Assembly (NCBI GenBank): GCA_965204725.1
Contig: OZ242005.1
Span: forward strand, 1,120,001-1,184,000
DNA: 64,000 bases
Source of the DNA: Candidatus Latescibacterota bacterium
Lineage (GTDB): Bacteria; Latescibacterota; UBA2968; UBA8231
Reading direction: 5' to 3'
Part shown: one piece after another, positions 1 through 7,309 of the stretch
Layout: each line of letters begins with the position of its first letter
Numbering within the stretch: position 1 is the first letter of the stretch
Translations under genes and position numbers: made by a program
The notes under the pieces: generated by a model
The model's database searches: none
The model's input: the letters and a program-made list of their open reading frames with translations, nothing else
Told to the model about the DNA's origin: nothing

Positions 1-3000
1 TACCGAGACAAGAATATTGAGCCTCGCGAGGGCGAAGCAATCGTCTTCGACGCTATCAGCACACAAGACATTGACGATCTATTCAAATCGGCCTGTTCTA
101 GCACCCCCGAGCAATTTGTCGGCATCGTTTCGCCAAGAGTGGTGCCGCAATATGAGATCATCCTTCGTCATTGGCGTCTTGGCGAGGCGCGATTCGTGTT
201 TTCCTGTAGACAGCGGAAGGCTGCTAGAGGCATCGAAATCTTTCGCAGGCGTTGTTCTGTCAGTGGGACCGCATCGTCCCTAGCCTCCAGTGTACAAGAA
301 GAAGCGGTCCGCCGTTTGCTCCCTCTGAGTGGGCACCTAAATCAGCGTATCGCTGATTTTTATCGAAGCCGAAACCGCTTTTTTGTTGAAGTATCTTGGC
401 CGATAGATGGACGCGGTAAACCGAGAACGGGAACCGGAAGATTCCGGTATCCTATTGGCTACCCTGACGGTTTACAGGCGCGAACAGGACACGGCGCATC
501 TTTCAATGCGCCCTTTGTATCGGACACAGAGCGACATGGCTTAGCACGGAATAATGAAACCAATAAGAAACTACGCGAAGACTGCGAGAAACTGCTGGCC
601 GACGTGCTCGCGCGCCATACCATCCCGCGCTGGGGACCTGATGGGCTCAACCCGCTAGTGCCAATCCCGAACTCCGACAATGAAGCTGAGGCAGTGCGAC
701 CGTTGCTAACAGCACTAGCTCGGCGTGGTGCCATGCCGACACTCAGGTGGAGAGCCGCGGCGGTCCGAGTACTTAAGAGCAAGAAACAGAAAGCTAGTGC
801 CAGAGCGGCTACTAAACAAAGGCCTAAGGAACCGCAGCAGTACCGTTTTGTTGTGCCGACTATGAGAAAATCGGAGGTGATTCACGCTTCTCTGTCTGTA
901 ATCTGTCCCCTCTCGGAAAGACAACTTGATCCACGAGTTCATCAGGACATCGTACGGCTTCTATCGGATGGATGTACAGACGGTTTTTGCGAGGACTTCA
1001 AAACTTTCGATGAAAAAGACGCACTAAGCAGGGCTAAGGGCGAAGGCAATAAGTACTTTGCCGTGTCCAATAACCTTGAGCGAGAATTCGCGCAGCCGCT
1101 CATCGCGTACTCCTATTTGGACGTGATTGAGGAGTCGATAGAGGAGGACAAGTGCAATGCGGGGGAAATTTCATCGTTGCAGGAGGCTCTGTTGCTTCCC
1201 GATGTACACGCCAAATCAGCACGATTCAAAGACTTACATGCCAGCGCACCCCTTCCTGCGGATATACCGGGCTTATGCCTGCCACCAATTTTGCATCAGG
1301 ATTTGGCGTCCCATCCGATCTTTCGGCGTACTAAATGGAAAAGGCCAAAGTACACGATGGAGAAGTTTCTAGGAGGTGGGGTGCTTCAGAATGCGGATGA
1401 GCAAATACGTAAACTGTTCTGGAAGTGGTTATGTCGGAACGAACACAGCATTGGGCCACGTGAACGCACCAAACTGGCTGACATAGAAATATGGCCAGAT
1501 GCTGACGGTAAACTCTGCAAGCTTTCGGCCCTCTGCGATGTGCGATCCCAGCGCATTGCAACAATTCTCGGTGATTCAATCCGCAGGCCACATGAGCATG
1601 TACGTCAATTAAGAAGGATAGTTTCTTTTGGTAAAAAACGCCGAACATCTATCCGTTGCTTCCCTTCGCAAGACGAAATTGCTGACTGGATCGAAAGACG
1701 CATAGCACCTCTTGTACCCGACGACACGCCGGACGCAGACACCATTGTCGCTCTACAATGCTTTGAAGCCGACTTGATGATTCTCCTGAAAAACCCAGTC
1801 ATCGCTCGTATGCTCAACGCGGCAGAAATGACTTTGCCGGCACTTGCGCAAGATGGCTCGATCCGACCACGAGAAGGGCTAGTCCTGCCGAGCAAGAATA
1901 TTGAGCGACTTGCATTGAGAAAACGGTTTCTGCTCAAGACCAATCGTCGTACTACCGCACTCAACAAGCTATCGCCGGCCCTGTCCGAGCCAACGGCGGC
2001 AATGCTCATCTGCACGTTAGACGAGGATCGTGAAAACTTCGGTGCCTTGCAGGCACGCCTTCGTCAGTTCATGGCGTTGACCCGACACTCGGATTGCTAT
2101 CGGGACCGACTTTCCAGTATGGAGATCCTCCCGGTTGGTGGCTGTCCTCGGTCTCCGAATGATTTGGCGTTCAAAAGTAAGAAGGGAGACTATTGGGGTA
2201 ACTGGAAAACCCAGATTTGGCCAACGGGTCTATCTCAAGACGATCAGCAACGTTACCGGGAGGCTGGTGTCACGTCAGCTTTCCCGACCAGTGAAACTAG
2301 CCGTGCCTTTTTTCAATGGCTATCGCAGCAGGATGAGGCGGTTCTGAGGAGTCATGTCAGTTGCGTACTTCGCCACATAGTACATCAAAACGGACCTGAG
2401 AGTTGGGCCGAAGTCTTTACGGACATACCATTCATCGTAGTGAAAAATAGCAGGGGCTTGCAGCTCGTACCTTTGCACACGGCGCGTCGCCGCCCGGTCT
2501 ATCTACCCGATGCAGAAAAAGAGATCGCTGACGCAGTGGTTGAGAATGATCCAGGTGTTTTGCTGGTCATAGACCGAGTCAAAGAAGTTTCCGAACCAAT
2601 CTCCGAGCCATTGCGGAGACTGGGTGTAAAATCGCTCCGTGAAAAAATCGGTGAACCTGAGCGAGTTGTCGGAAATGGCAACATCCAACAGGCTCCCCCC
2701 AAGGTCCTTCGCGGGGTTGCCGCTCTACTCCGCCCGAAGTTCCGCTGTACATTCCGCAAGCATATCGTTGAACTTGGCGTTGAATCCGATCTGTTATGGA
2801 ACGACTGGCATGACCGGCTGTCGCGCATTAAAGAGGTACGATTCGCTGACAGTGTTGAAGCGCACTACCGCTTTCGCCGCAAGCCATATCCCATCGCAGT
2901 TGACGCCGGATTTGATCCTGACTCCCGCATATTCTGGATCAAGGAAGGGTACGGACTGCGTAGCCTCTACGAAACCATTGCGAAGCAACTGGTCTTCAAG

Positions 3001-3780
3001 CCGACTGCAAAACCTATACATTTTATGGCTTTGCAGCGGGTACTAGAATTGGAGTCTCACGATCCGAGTTTCGGGTCCCCGGATCCCACGATTCTGGAGA
3101 ATGGGGAAAGCATCTTGGACGAAGAAACTCTCGATACAGATAGTGAATCCAGCGATAACGGCACTGGAGAGGCCAGACTCGGGCACTCTCCTTTTAAGCC
3201 TGATCCCCAGGGGAACGTTCCGAGACCTAGCCCTATCTCATCTACCTCAAGCGTAGCCTCGCCACCGGGCGAACACGGAGCGACTAATGGGAACAGCCCA
3301 AGTAAAGGCGGCAGCAACAACGAATCCGCACCGGAACTTGAGAAGAAGCATATCGGGGAATTGAAGCAGGATCATTATGCGAGTCACTGTCAGATGTGCC
3401 TTTGCAAACGGCCACCTCAAGAGCTTGCCCCGGTCGACAGCTATATTGAGTGGGAGGAAGTACGGCGGCATGTCGTAGAAGCCCATCATGTCGATCTAAA
3501 ATCAGCCGGCGGTGCTCGCCACGCCGGAAATCTAATCTTGTTATGCAAGTTACACCACAATAATTATGGTCGGCGGCTTACACGTATAGCGATAATCGAT
3601 GCTCTTCGGGGCCAGAAAAAAGACAAGGAGATTTGCTTTGGTGTAGGTGTGGTAAAGGGCCAATCCATAAAAATTGAGCTCCCGGATACAGATGAAGTCG
3701 TTGAAGTCTTTTTCACAAACGATCATGCCGATTATTGGCTTTCTGTTGGCGGAGCAGACGGTCTTGGCATCGATTCCTAA
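1..3780 (+). CDS. Partial (5'-truncated) large sacsin/NOV-like protein with C-terminal Zn-binding HNH endonuclease domain
   Basis: Frame 1 is open from base 1 (YRDKNIEPREGE...) into the 1213-aa ORF. 'FNAPFVSDTERHGL..NETN' resembles the segment that follows the GHKL domain in sacsin-like ATPases. C-terminal CQMC...VEAHHVDLKSAGGARHAGNLILLCKLHH is an HNH signature. GC is lower than in flanking metabolic genes. Confidence 0.6.
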   Translation, partial: YRDKNIEPREGEAIVFDAISTQDIDDLFKSACSSTPEQFVGIVSPRVVPQYEIILRHWRLGEARFVFSCRQRKAARGIEIFRRRCSVSGTASSLASSVQEEAVRRLLPLSGHLNQRIADFYRSRNRFFVEVSWPIDGRGKPRTGTGRFRYPIGYPDGLQARTGHGASFNAPFVSDTERHGLARNNETNKKLREDCEKLLADVLARHTIPRWGPDGLNPLVPIPNSDNEAEAVRPLLTALARRGAMPTLRWRAAAVRVLKSKKQKASARAATKQRPKEPQQYRFVVPTMRKSEVIHASLSVICPLSERQLDPRVHQDIVRLLSDGCTDGFCEDFKTFDEKDALSRAKGEGNKYFAVSNNLEREFAQPLIAYSYLDVIEESIEEDKCNAGEISSLQEALLLPDVHAKSARFKDLHASAPLPADIPGLCLPPILHQDLASHPIFRRTKWKRPKYTMEKFLGGGVLQNADEQIRKLFWKWLCRNEHSIGPRERTKLADIEIWPDADGKLCKLSALCDVRSQRIATILGDSIRRPHEHVRQLRRIVSFGKKRRTSIRCFPSQDEIADWIERRIAPLVPDDTPDADTIVALQCFEADLMILLKNPVIARMLNAAEMTLPALAQDGSIRPREGLVLPSKNIERLALRKRFLLKTNRRTTALNKLSPALSEPTAAMLICTLDEDRENFGALQARLRQFMALTRHSDCYRDRLSSMEILPVGGCPRSPNDLAFKSKKGDYWGNWKTQIWPTGLSQDDQQRYREAGVTSAFPTSETSRAFFQWLSQQDEAVLRSHVSCVLRHIVHQNGPESWAEVFTDIPFIVVKNSRGLQLVPLHTARRRPVYLPDAEKEIADAVVENDPGVLLVIDRVKEVSEPISEPLRRLGVKSLREKIGEPERVVGNGNIQQAPPKVLRGVAALLRPKFRCTFRKHIVELGVESDLLWNDWHDRLSRIKEVRFADSVEAHYRFRRKPYPIAVDAGFDPDSRIFWIKEGYGLRSLYETIAKQLVFKPTAKPIHFMALQRVLELESHDPSFGSPDPTILENGESILDEETLDTDSESSDNGTGEARLGHSPFKPDPQGNVPRPSPISSTSSVASPPGEHGATNGNSPSKGGSNNESAPELEKKHIGELKQDHYASHCQMCLCKRPPQELAPVDSYIEWEEVRRHVVEAHHVDLKSAGGARHAGNLILLCKLHHNNYGRRLTRIAIIDALRGQKKDKEICFGVGVVKGQSIKIELPDTDEVVEVFFTNDHADYWLSVGGADGLGIDS

Positions 3781-3800
3781 CGCGCTTGCGGCCCGAGTAG

Positions 3801-5051
3801 CTAGCAGACGAGGGTGTACTTTTTTTTGCCGCGGCGCACGATCCAGTATTTGCCGTGTAGGCCCTCTGGGCGTCGCATGATCCGCGCCAAGTCCGTGCAG
3901 CGCTCGCCGTTGATATAGATGGAGCCGTTTTGCACGTCTTGGCGGGCTTGGCGCTTGGAGGAAGAGACGCCGGCCGCGACGAGCAGATCAATTAGTCCGA
4001 GTTCCTCCCGATCCATCGCGTGCGTTGGCACGTCGCCAAAGCCTTCGAGGATTTCGTCCTCGGATAGGTCCTGAAAAGCCCCGTAAAAGAGTGCGTGCGA
4101 GATGCGTTCGGCGCGGTGTGCGGCGTCGGCTCCATGCACTAAGGTCGTTACTTGGGCTGCGAGGGTGCGCTGGGCTTCGCGCCGCTCGGGCCGGTCGCGG
4201 ACGGTTTCGGCGAGCTGGAGGATCGCGTCTTGCTCCAAGAAGGTGTACGTTTTCAGGTAATCGACGACCTTCAGGTCCTCGGCGTTGATCCAGAACTGGT
4301 AAAACTGATAGGCCGAGGTCTTAGCAGCGTCGAGCCAGATCGTGCCCGCTTCGGTCTTGCCGAATTTAGTGCCGTCTGCTTTGGTCACGAGCGGGCAAGT
4401 CAGGCCAAAGGCCCGGTTGCCGGCGCGGCGGCGGATCAGGTCGGTGCCAGCGGTGATATTGCCCCACTGATCCGAGCCGCCAGTCTGCAACTCGCAGCCG
4501 TATTCTCGATTGAGGACCCAGAAGTCATAAGCCTGTAGCACCATGTAGCTGAACTCGGTGTAGGAAATGCCCGCTTCCAAGCGCGAGGCGACCGAGTCCT
4601 TGGCTAGCATGTAGGATACTGGAAAGTGCTTGCCGACGTCGCGCATAAAGTCGATGGCCGCGAGTTGGCTGAGCCAGTCGTAGTTGTTGACCGCGATGGC
4701 AGGGTTGGGGCCATCGAACTCTAGGAAGCGCGATAGCTGGGCTTTGACCTGCTCAGTCCATGCGGCCACCACGTCGTCGGCATTGAGTTGGCGTTCCTCG
4801 GCCTTGCCGCTTGGATCGCCAATCAGGCCGGTGCCGCCGCCGGCTAGGGCAATGACCTTGTGACCGGCGAGTTGGAAGCGGCGCAGGAGCAGGATCGGCA
4901 CGAGGTTGCCTACCGTCAGGCTGTCAGCGGTTGGGTCGAAGCCGTTGTAGAGCGTGAGCGGACCGGCCGCGAGGCGCTCGGCGAGGCCATCGAGGTCGGT
5001 GGCTTGGTAAATCAAGCCGCGAAATTGCAGATCGGGTATGATGTTCATCAC
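3801..5051 (-). CDS. tyrS: Tyrosine--tRNA ligase
   Basis: YNGFDPTADSLTVGN (HIGH-like), QTGGSDQWGNI, KFGKT (KMSKS-like), C-terminal S4 domain ending RRGKK. Start is GTG 5051 or ATG 5048. Confidence 0.97.
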   Translation of the reverse strand: MMNIIPDLQFRGLIYQATDLDGLAERLAAGPLTLYNGFDPTADSLTVGNLVPILLLRRFQLAGHKVIALAGGGTGLIGDPSGKAEERQLNADDVVAAWTEQVKAQLSRFLEFDGPNPAIAVNNYDWLSQLAAIDFMRDVGKHFPVSYMLAKDSVASRLEAGISYTEFSYMVLQAYDFWVLNREYGCELQTGGSDQWGNITAGTDLIRRRAGNRAFGLTCPLVTKADGTKFGKTEAGTIWLDAAKTSAYQFYQFWINAEDLKVVDYLKTYTFLEQDAILQLAETVRDRPERREAQRTLAAQVTTLVHGADAAHRAERISHALFYGAFQDLSEDEILEGFGDVPTHAMDREELGLIDLLVAAGVSSSKRQARQDVQNGSIYINGERCTDLARIMRRPEGLHGKYWIVRRGKKKYTLVC

Positions 5052-5075
5052 AGGTCCTTAATTCCTTATGGGCAT

Positions 5076-5102
5076 AAAAAAAGCCCCTGTAATCAGGGGC
5101 TT
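5076..5102 (-). terminator. Intrinsic terminator (3:4 hairpin) of the tyrS leader/attenuator
   Basis: Minus strand AAGCCCCTG-ATTA-CAGGGGCTTTTTTT: GC stem with a U-tract, about 25 nt upstream of the tyrS start. Confidence 0.85.
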
Positions 5103-5134
5103 GTAAACGCGGTTGGGACGATAAAACGAGCGCA

Positions 5135-5197
5135 CTACCCCTCTGTGTGACGCGAATAATAGGGGTAGCGGCGATCAGGGCGTACGGTCTGCATCAT
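5135..5197 (-). CDS. Tyr-rich leader peptide of the tyrS attenuator (MMQTVRPDRRYPYYSRHTEG*)
   Basis: 20-codon ORF read directly from the minus strand, preceded by GGAGA (plus-strand 5202-5206). Contains TAC-CCC-TAT-TAT and overlaps alternative hairpin segments. Confidence 0.8.
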   Translation of the reverse strand: MMQTVRPDRRYPYYSRHTEG

Positions 5198-5213
5198 TCA
5201 TTCTCCGCACAAA

Positions 5214-5242
5214 AATATAGCCGCGCCCTCTATCCCAGTCAA
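5214..5242 (-). promoter_or_regulatory. Sigma70-type promoter for the tyrS leader
   Basis: Minus strand TTGACT-17 nt-TATATT immediately upstream of the leader RBS. Confidence 0.7.
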
Positions 5243-6495
5243 TCGCCCCGATAGCCCTGTGCGGCCCAGACTTTTCGGGCCAGCTTTTTCGCCTCGGCCG
5301 AAGGTTCGATTGCGCCCAAAAGACTGCTTGGCGGCTGCCCTTGCTTTTTGCGCTCGGGGTCGGGCGACCAGTCGTCTTGGGCGTATTTTCGGCGCACGGA
5401 CTCGCGGCGGAAATCGGGCACTTCCATCGGTGCCGAGTCGTTGAGCGCGGACCGCCACGCTTGAATCCCGGCGATGCTCATGTCGAGGCCGCGGTACACG
5501 TCGAGATAGGGTGGCTCGCCAGTGCGGATGGCCTCGGCAAAGTGGTAGCTGGTGAAAAAGTCGCCGCCGCCGTGGCCGGTGCGAGTGGCTTGGGCGCGAT
5601 GCACGGGGAAGTCGGGCTTGTACACCGTTTCGACCGGATCGCGCTCGCGCTTTTCCCACGGCTCGTACCACACGCGCAGCCGCTGTTTGTCGCCGTGGCG
5701 GCAGTTTTCCATCACCCCCTTGTTGCCGTGGATGCGGACGTAGTTGCCGTGGCCGCGCAACGCGCCGTGCAGCGACTTCATCACCGCGTCGTTGTCCATC
5801 CGGCAGATGATCACCGCGGCCGTGTCGCTGCGGTTCACGTGCAGCGTTTGGGTGGGATCGGCGAAATCATAAGGGATGACAAAGCCGTTTACTTTTACGG
5901 GCCGGGTGTCGGTGATGTATAGGACCGGGGCGATGGAATGGGTGCAGTAGTATGTGGCGGGGATCCAGTTGCGCCAGTGGTCGCGCCCGCAACTGCGCGC
6001 CAGCTTCACTTCGGCCGGGTCGGGATGGACGTACTCGCCCTCGCCGTATTTGAACTCGCCGACGCGGCCCTTTTGGTAGAGCCGCCTCATCTCCTGATTG
6101 AAGACCATGTAGGGATAGTTCTCGGCGAACATGTAAATCTGGCCGCTTTGCTCGACCGCTCGCGCCAGTGCCACGCCTTCGCCCAAGGTGTGGCAGGCCG
6201 CGGTCTCGCTCATTACGTGTTTGCCGGCGTTGAGTGCTTTGATGGCAAACGGGGCGTGCTGGTGGAAGTAGTTGGCGAGCACGACCGCGTCGAGGTCGCA
6301 GCCGAGAAATTCGTCGTAATCGACGAATGTCGGCACGTTGAGAGCCTTGCCCTCTGCAATGAGGCGTTCTTCCCAGATGTCGCAAATGGCGACTAGCTCC
6401 ATGCTGGTCGCAGCGGCGGCCTGCATGAAGGAGCGACCGCGACCGACGCCGACTACGCCGACTCGGATGGGATGTGGTTTGCCGCGTTTTTTCAT
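5239..6495 (-). CDS. Gfo/Idh/MocA family oxidoreductase
   Basis: N-terminal Rossmann motif VGVVGVGRG, AGKHVMSE, YGEGEY; typical length. Confidence 0.88.
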   Translation of the reverse strand: MKKRGKPHPIRVGVVGVGRGRSFMQAAAATSMELVAICDIWEERLIAEGKALNVPTFVDYDEFLGCDLDAVVLANYFHQHAPFAIKALNAGKHVMSETAACHTLGEGVALARAVEQSGQIYMFAENYPYMVFNQEMRRLYQKGRVGEFKYGEGEYVHPDPAEVKLARSCGRDHWRNWIPATYYCTHSIAPVLYITDTRPVKVNGFVIPYDFADPTQTLHVNRSDTAAVIICRMDNDAVMKSLHGALRGHGNYVRIHGNKGVMENCRHGDKQRLRVWYEPWEKRERDPVETVYKPDFPVHRAQATRTGHGGGDFFTSYHFAEAIRTGEPPYLDVYRGLDMSIAGIQAWRSALNDSAPMEVPDFRRESVRRKYAQDDWSPDPERKKQGQPPSSLLGAIEPSAEAKKLARKVWAAQGYRGD

Positions 6496-6510
6496 GGTTT
6501 AAGCCGATGT

Positions 6511-7149
6511 CTAAGGGGCCGCCTGTTCCTTCCCTGCGGCGGCATCCACGTACTCCTTCACCAAAAGAAGGTCTTCCATGGAGCCGCCCAACAGCAGCTC
6601 CAACGGCTCTCGTTCATCTAGCAAGGGGTGCCGTTCGCGCAGCCATTCGTTTTCAACTTCCAAATCGCGAAAGAGCGAGGACAGCGTCGCTCTGATATGA
6701 AAAAGATGGGCAATTCGATCTCGAATGTCTCGGCCGTGCAGGTCAGCAGCTCCTGCCAAAATCGCTCGCACGAGATTGTTGTCCGTCTGATCGAATCCCA
6801 GCAGGGGGACCGCATCGTCTCTGCTCAAATGCCAGTTCTCAAGCAATTTCAAGACGAACTGAATTGGTCCGCTGACCCGTTTCGGCGCAAAGACACTTAG
6901 TTTCCAACTCACAACGTCGGAACCGACATCTGACGAGTGAACTGCGATAAGTCCCAACGTTGACTTATATGCAGACGAACCGCTAGCGAAGGAAGGAAAG
7001 GCAGGTCTCGGCTTCCACTGATAAAAGTGGCTCGCATGTAAACCAGCCCCGACTTTGGACGGTCCATCATAGCCGGAGTTTCGCATTAAGAGGGAGTCAT
7101 TAGCTCCTTCTCCAAGAGCCGGTCCTAATAGTTCTGTTGCAGTCGTCAT
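6511..7149 (-). CDS. Xre/MbcA/ParS-type antitoxin C-terminal domain protein (no adjacent toxin)
   Basis: C-terminal LSSLF....ENEWLRERHPLLDEREPLELLLGGSMEDLLLVKEYVD matches the MbcA/ParS toxin-binding domain. Probable ATG at 7149 (ORF open to 7194). Confidence 0.65.
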   Translation of the reverse strand: MTTATELLGPALGEGANDSLLMRNSGYDGPSKVGAGLHASHFYQWKPRPAFPSFASGSSAYKSTLGLIAVHSSDVGSDVVSWKLSVFAPKRVSGPIQFVLKLLENWHLSRDDAVPLLGFDQTDNNLVRAILAGAADLHGRDIRDRIAHLFHIRATLSSLFRDLEVENEWLRERHPLLDEREPLELLLGGSMEDLLLVKEYVDAAAGKEQAAP

Positions 7150-7309
7150 GTTAGTTCCACCTGAATCCGCGACAGTATCCCGCCTATCAGACAATACTGT
7201 TCCAACTTCCTAATCGATATACGTCTAATAAGACTGTAATTGATACTCTGTCAATCTACCCCGACCCGCTAACGACGGATCGAGTACGTTCAGGCGGCGA
7301 TAGGGGCAC

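Follow-up and report, generated by a model that had tools for sequence, protein, structure and literature searches.

The tyrS locus and its leader

The window, by which we mean the whole analysed stretch of 64,000 nucleotides from Candidatus Latescibacterota bacterium (an assembly of 5.4 Mb), carries on its minus strand the gene for tyrosine--tRNA ligase, tyrS. Its product matches the NCBIfam model TIGR00234 with 404.5 bits against a cut-off of 113.8 and contains the Pfam domains tRNA-synt_1b, SYY C-terminal and S4, and the TyrS proteins of relatives align with it from residue 2 onward; the controlled gene is tyrS. The nearest TyrS proteins outside the phylum are those of Firmicutes, and the tRNA genes close to the examined loci are tRNA-Val, not tRNA-Tyr. 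On the other side of tyrS and convergent with it, a 1213-residue ORF on the plus strand (139-3780) matched nothing in Pfam with E up to 0.001, and farther off, at 6511-7194 on the minus strand, a 227-residue ORF bears the C-terminal toxin-binding domain of Xre/MbcA/ParS antitoxins (PF09722, E 5.2e-07). The region in front of tyrS consists of the following elements, in the order of transcription.

5242-5237, minus strand: -35 hexamer TTGACT, sharing bases with the stop codon at the end of the GFO/IDH/MocA-type gene upstream
5219-5214, minus strand: -10 hexamer TATATT, 17 nt from the -35 hexamer
5206-5202, minus strand: Shine-Dalgarno sequence GGAGA of the leader ORF, kept in the genus alignment
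5197-5135, minus strand: leader ORF, peptide MMQTVRPDRRYPYYSRHTEG followed by a stop, 19-20 codons, three of them Tyr
5170-5161, minus strand: segment 1, CGCTACCCCT, 5' arm of the 1:2 hairpin
5167-5165, 5161-5159 and 5158-5156, minus strand: Tyr codons TAC, TAT and TAT, with one Pro codon as separator
5142-5133, minus strand: segment 2, AGGGGTAGTG, with the TAG stop of the leader ORF inside it
5102-5076, minus strand: intrinsic terminator AAGCCCCTG-ATTA-CAGGGGCTT-T7, nine pairs, six of them G-C, loop of 4
5102-5094, minus strand: segment 3, AAGCCCCTG, 5' arm of the terminator
5089-5081, with a T-run to 5076, minus strand: segment 4, CAGGGGCTT plus T-tract, 3' arm of the terminator
3801-5051, minus strand: tyrS, likely start ATG 5048 after AAGGA, 415-416 residues

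The promoter, the GGAGA, the ORF and the four segments had been proposed in a sequence-only reading of the window, and all of them are correct in coordinates and sequence on the minus strand; the three clustered Tyr codons are likewise present. The same reading placed the start of the leader peptide at 5197. The ORF stands, and conservation points to the second ATG, at 5194, as its start: it is the only leader start universal in relatives and has GGAG 8 nt away in the genus alignment, and the peptide is therefore probably the 19-residue form beginning with MQTV. The whole leader is about 130 nt long, 13 nt separate the last Tyr codon from segment 2, and the 1:2 hairpin comprises 10-12 bp between CGCTACCCCT and AGGGGTAGTG. 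Three features of classical attenuators are thus present, i.e. a translatable upstream ORF with its own start signal, enrichment in the cognate codon and an intrinsic terminator. From the position of the hexamers, transcription would start at about 5209-5207, which leaves just a few bases 5' of the Shine-Dalgarno sequence, a point that we counted against reading the leader as an attenuator. A search of sequencing data for the interval 4300-5700 turned up six contigs and no RNA run. The promoter match is by itself not significant, because the interval 3500-6800 holds one such site (TTGACT-17-TATATT) and 1.1 are expected from shuffled sequences. An upstream ORF with at least three Tyr codons was also found in 6 of the 139 terminator-plus-gene contexts of the genome (about 4%, in five distinct places including tyrS). 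Single arrangements of this kind are therefore not rare by chance, and the weight of the finding rests on conservation and not on the single sequence.

Conservation of the leader and of its reading frame

We scored a leader as complete when an upstream ORF with at least one Tyr codon, followed by a terminator of the GGGG..T-run type, preceded tyrS. All of the first 23 same-genus tyrS loci possess an upstream ORF with two to six Tyr codons and the same terminator (an example of such a leader is MQTLRADRYYYYYYTSRPKGG), and six further genomes of the genus agree with them, so that the leader is complete in 28 of the 29 genomes of the genus and partial, with masked bases, in the remaining one. A class-wide search located tyrS in 120 of 132 genomes, and the upstream DNA was then compared for the other genera of the family, where the leader is complete in 32 of 39 genomes from 14 genera. 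Two cases outside the genus are partial, one with the contig cut 101 nt upstream and one with a Tyr-containing frame that has no canonical start. The leader is lacking in five genomes of the family: two of one genus, one with a short contig and two others, in one of which tyrS contains in-frame stops and in the other of which a two-Tyr ORF occurs without such a terminator. The conservation that an attenuator proposed from one genome would lead one to expect is consequently found in relatives' tyrS upstream regions, where Tyr-containing ORF and terminator are complete in 60 of the 68 family genomes with readable upstream DNA (60 distinct leaders), partial in three and lacking in five. In one family genome the tyrS match at G089:C18:16967-18211 (locus L141) bears two TGA stops and one TAG stop and has no leader, perhaps because the copy is broken or the assembly faulty.

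Beyond the family the picture is different. A Tyr-containing upstream ORF with terminator precedes tyrS in none of 29 genomes from other families of the phylum, where the gene lies directly after a trpF-like gene or behind a plain promoter, and no such leader occurs at those of the 80 compared loci that encode TyrS relatives of other phyla. Within the family, a promoter of the form TTGACN-16..18-TANNNT lies at most 75 nt from the leader start in 49 of the 60 distinct leaders, and a Shine-Dalgarno-like motif is present in 35 of the 60.

The leader ORFs bear the signature of coding sequences that retain Tyr. Tyr accounts for 180 of 1201 leader codons (15%) in the 60 distinct leaders as against 3.1% in the genome's ORFs of at least 400 aa, with one to six Tyr per leader and three in the 19 codons of the window's leader. 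Both codons are used, TAT 113 times and TAC 67 times, and they interchange at homologous sites. In the genus alignment all gaps inside the leader ORF are of 3 or 6 nt and keep the frame. The peptides, 13-27 residues long, diverge between genera, and what is kept is the Tyr codons, an Arg or His codon preceding them and a Gly-rich end, which falls on the G-run of segment 2. Across the 60 leaders, the codon right before a Tyr run is CGA 21 times, CAC 16 times and CGC 14 times. In the window this Arg/His-Tyr context lies at 5173-5165 and is retained while the rest of the peptide drifts.

The leaders of one genus (L126-L128, L131, L132, L134-L136 and L138) contain one or two Tyr codons in the motif (D/H)RRYR. 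These nine one- or two-Tyr leaders, all from a single genus, were counted against the attenuator reading. In nine family leaders, mostly of the same (D/H)RRYR genus, the ATG lies 7 nt beyond the end of the -10 box, and because this distance is so short the leader ORFs in question are predicted to be translated from leaderless mRNA.

RNA pairings, the proposed mechanism and its rivals

The minimum-free-energy fold of the leader (-50.9 kcal/mol, z -2.5, with 2 of 200 shuffles as good) includes the 1:2 hairpin, and the terminator is detected at 5102-5076, both as anticipated before folding. The sequence-only reading had regarded all three pairings as possible, and the sub-fold energies in the window are favourable for each, -16.2 kcal/mol for 1:2, -13.3 kcal/mol for 2:3 and -15.5 kcal/mol for 3:4, whereas covariation supports 3:4 but neither 1:2 nor 2:3. 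For the terminator helix, measured on a cross-genus alignment of 28 sequences, 94.1% of 239 cells are paired and compensatory changes occur at two of the nine pairs (GC/AU in 7 sequences, UA/CG in 9), with a covariation score reached by none of 500 shuffles. As judged from this alignment, the terminator helix covaries across genera.

Within the genus, 92.3% of 168 cells of the 1:2 helix are paired, and we found no compensatory changes there and solely one-sided, wobble-compatible changes from C to U. Modelling further suggests that many relatives outside the genus do not form a strong 1:2 hairpin, since segment 3 seems highly sequestered in them without a ribosome. For 2:3, the MAFFT alignment that was used for covariation put the G-run of two genera in the wrong place, and in a fixed-register alignment no covariation was found: pairs form in 69.1% of 194 cells, and the observed values are reached by 171 and 240 of 500 shuffles. 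When segments were swapped between leaders, one leader being taken per genus, own partners gave -16.2 kcal/mol versus -15.4 kcal/mol for swapped ones, a difference that is not significant (2052 of 20000 permutations); the test is significant solely with 24 representatives that are not independent of one another (20 of 20000 permutations). In the window the 2:3 duplex does not outperform shuffled ones (p 0.11), and p is at most 0.05 in 31 of the 60 family leaders. What chiefly supports the pairing is an invariant G-run at the end of the ORF, which recurs in the family, and an invariant C-run in the terminator. For the antiterminator, then, geometry and energies fit, and no compensatory changes were found; as modelled, the 2:3 and 1:2 pairings have plausible energies and lie where the trpL/pheM model demands.

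To relate these pairings to the position of the ribosome, we modelled the transcript as cut just before segment 4 and masked all RNA 5' of the leading edge of the ribosome. For segment 3 in the window, this predicts a sequestration of 0.24 in the absence of a ribosome, 0.69 when the A site is at any of the Tyr codons and 0.29 when the ribosome is at the stop, which agrees with the three-state logic suggested earlier for this leader. The genus medians are 0.21, 0.76 and 0.38, respectively, and in 40 of the 60 leaders sequestration at the first Tyr codon is at least 0.3 above the value at the stop. In the equilibrium fold of the full-length leader the probability of the terminator is about 1.0 at every position of a moving 28-nt footprint. 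Because the terminator dominates the full leader at equilibrium, antitermination would have to be kinetic; in classical attenuators the terminator is likewise dominant at equilibrium and antitermination kinetic. With a single 28-nt footprint and a stall at the second or third Tyr codon, RNA upstream of the ribosome is predicted to pair with segment 2, although such a helix across the ribosome seems sterically unlikely. RNAalifold applied to the genus alignment gave a consensus that is weak (-8.45 kcal/mol) and departs from the four-segment model. Between segments 2 and 3 lies a spacer (5103-5132, minus strand, alignment columns 101-135, consensus ...CGTCCGCTTTATCGTCTCAACCGCGTTTACA) that in the genus is better conserved than the leader ORF, and part of it pairs weakly with the Shine-Dalgarno region in the RNAalifold consensus.

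We consider it likely, with good though not full confidence, that the tyrS leader is a ribosome-mediated (leader-peptide) transcription attenuator that senses the supply of Tyr-tRNA(Tyr). The layout of the leader, its conservation and the identity of tyrS are established; we infer ribosome stalling, a switch to 2:3 and a Tyr response, which would proceed as follows. Transcription would begin at the leader's own promoter and a ribosome would translate the 19-codon leader. With charged tRNA(Tyr) plentiful, the ribosome would reach the TAG stop and cover segment 2, so that the 3:4 terminator could form and transcription would stop at about 5076. With charged tRNA(Tyr) scarce, through low Tyr or low TyrRS activity, the ribosome would stall at the Tyr codons and cover segment 1; segment 2 could then pair with segment 3, which would block the terminator, and RNA polymerase would enter tyrS. 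Without translation the 1:2 hairpin would form, and the terminator with it.

Several other explanations can be set against these data. The upstream ORF and the terminator could be a general translation-coupled or constitutive damper of tyrS with no specificity for Tyr, which would be in accordance with the dominance of the terminator at equilibrium, with a 2:3 pairing that lacks covariation support and with the single Tyr codon of some relatives; we nevertheless hold this for unlikely, as it leaves unexplained the fivefold enrichment in Tyr over at least 14 genera, the turnover between TAT and TAC and the runs of up to six Tyr, and equally the Thr-rich and Asn-rich leaders at thrS and aspS of the same genome. 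It is still less probable that the leader is an untranslated structured RNA, T-box-like or an operator, that senses tRNA(Tyr) or TyrRS directly and in which the Tyr triplets are recognition elements. Such a sensor would fit the classical T-box control of tyrS in Firmicutes, from which the closest TyrS outside the phylum comes, and the high conservation, in the genus, of the spacer between segments 2 and 3, but T-box (RF00230) is not among 13 Rfam matches of the leader at E up to 10, and the same model finds two Paenibacillus tyrS loci, used as positive control, at 122 and 94 bits. The leader is also just about 130 nt long and its overall consensus fold is weak. Its frame, its start codon and the position of its stop are retained, indels preserve the frame, and leaders differ in how many Tyr triplets they carry. 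The choice of the trpL/pheM logic over the T-box, already made from the sequence, is thus supported.

A functional Tyr-rich micropeptide unrelated to the control of tyrS would account for the conservation of an ORF with a Shine-Dalgarno sequence, but hardly for a peptide that, the Tyr codons, the Arg/His codon and the Gly-rich end apart, changes in sequence and length from genus to genus, and we find this highly improbable. Finally, the hairpin might simply terminate the GFO/IDH/MocA-type gene upstream, the small ORF being a chance frame, given that this gene is on the same strand and stops 137 nt before the terminator hairpin, and that an ORF with three or more Tyr precedes about one in 25 terminator contexts of the genome. 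In one same-genus relative, however, the upstream gene is divergent according to the ORF listing, yet promoter, leader and terminator persist, and therefore the hairpin is not the terminator of a co-directional neighbour there; moreover, the leader unit accompanies tyrS across genera despite differing neighbour genes. This explanation is contradicted by the comparative data and is the least credible of all. Every one of these alternatives is weakened because conserved, synonymously varying, in-frame Tyr codons stay unexplained by it, and attenuation by the leader peptide is the reading that we retain.

Other synthetase leaders and comparison with known systems

Of the 21 synthetase-family Pfam matches in the genome three have leaders of this kind, namely tyrS, thrS and aspS, the last of which were missed by a genome-wide scan for leader-like ORFs whose output was for the most part noise. 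Both additional loci lie outside the window.

G000:C1:11628-13800 (L151:2040-2330), minus strand: thrS leader with TTGACA-type promoter, ORF and terminator
G000:C1:4788310-4788645 (L197:60-395), plus strand: two tandem Asn-rich leaders before aspS

The thrS leader ORF, MISAMRTVAFTAYPSGFPSGPMASPTTTTCICAG, ends in PTTTTCICAG before its stop, its four Thr being encoded by four different codons, and is followed by the terminator CCCGCTGTCG-GCTGCAA-TGACAGCGGG-T6. By rule, a Thr-rich upstream ORF is present at 23 of 30 thrS loci of the family; by eye, 21 contain at least three consecutive Thr, and the run reaches 11 consecutive Thr in relatives. At aspS the two leader ORFs, MMTRQNNRTPNNNPLAPLRVF and MTFQHPARALSHNNNDNNPAIRARWRWP, each end in a stop and are each followed by their own terminator. 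The gene is of the bacterial type (NF001750, 787.5 bits), and Asn codons in front of an Asp synthetase gene suggest that the aspS product also serves tRNA-Asn. An apparent upstream ORF before an asnS-like gene was rejected, as it is the 3' end of the upstream gene followed by that gene's terminator.

A broader interpretation can be offered tentatively, and we would not yet bet on it: the family may use cognate-codon leader peptides in place of T-boxes to run a synthetase regulon that includes at least tyrS, thrS and aspS, in which the Arg CGA/CGC or His CAC codon before Tyr in the tyrS leader would serve to tune stalling and one genus would make do with a leaderless mRNA and a single Tyr (DRRYRR). 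If this is true, a single codon in a slow-decoding context would be enough to sense charged tRNA, and an uncultured phylum would have settled on ribosome stalling as its sensing solution at several synthetase genes at once. The 60 diverged variants, with one to six Tyr, with or without the 1:2 hairpin and with a Shine-Dalgarno sequence or leaderless, form a natural series on the number of codons and the geometry that attenuators need. The upstream ORF and the attenuator also deserve to be marked in the annotation of these genomes.

The textbook view of the control of synthetase genes is one of T-boxes in Firmicutes and of a few proteobacterial cases, e.g. pheM and the thrS operator. In the Rfam scan no family matched the leader at threshold. 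The best match was Phe_leader (RF01859) with 24.4 bits against a gathering score of 55, in an alignment carried by the terminator, and Trp_leader (RF00513) reached 15 bits against 41. No published Tyr leader for tyrS was found in the full-text literature, whose coverage excludes a 2010 survey by Lopatovskaya et al. that reportedly deals with attenuation of aminoacyl-tRNA synthetase operons. A Tyr-codon leader at tyrS would accordingly add an amino acid for which we found no published leader-peptide attenuator, and the suggestion that the element is undescribed is consistent with the literature.

The closest parallel is E. coli pheM-pheST, where a short ORF rich in the cognate codon and an intrinsic terminator also stand before the cognate synthetase gene. 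The pheM leader reads charged tRNA, which gives feedback on synthetase activity as well as on the supply of the amino acid. The tyrS leader differs from it in having Tyr and not Phe codons, in preceding a monocistronic tyrS, in belonging to another phylum and in showing no sequence relationship. With E. coli trpL it shares the four-segment 1:2/2:3/3:4 design proposed for it, in which the regulatory codons fall at segment 1 and the stop codon near segment 2, whereas the gene controlled here encodes a synthetase and trpL controls a biosynthetic operon.

Leader-peptide attenuation of pheST is known in gamma-proteobacteria, and for trpS and leuS of Streptomyces classical attenuators have been predicted (Seliverstov et al. 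2005, PMC1262725); as far as the available part of that paper extends, no conserved RNA structure is reported for tyrosine genes, and a tyrS leader peptide is unmentioned in the available parts of PMC4833913 and PMC12612679. Judged by the same part of PMC1262725, the Streptomyces attenuators resemble ours as leader peptides at synthetase genes outside Proteobacteria that were recognized by comparative genomics, and differ from it in amino acid and phylum. The T-box of tyrS in Bacillus and other Firmicutes acts on the same gene, responds to the same signal (uncharged versus charged tRNA-Tyr) and has the same terminator/antiterminator output, but there the RNA reads the tRNA directly without translation, and the T-box is absent from the Latescibacterota leader. 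Taken together, these comparisons support placing the tyrS leader, although it falls outside every Rfam leader family, in the classical class of leader-peptide attenuators, with pheM-pheST as its nearest counterpart.
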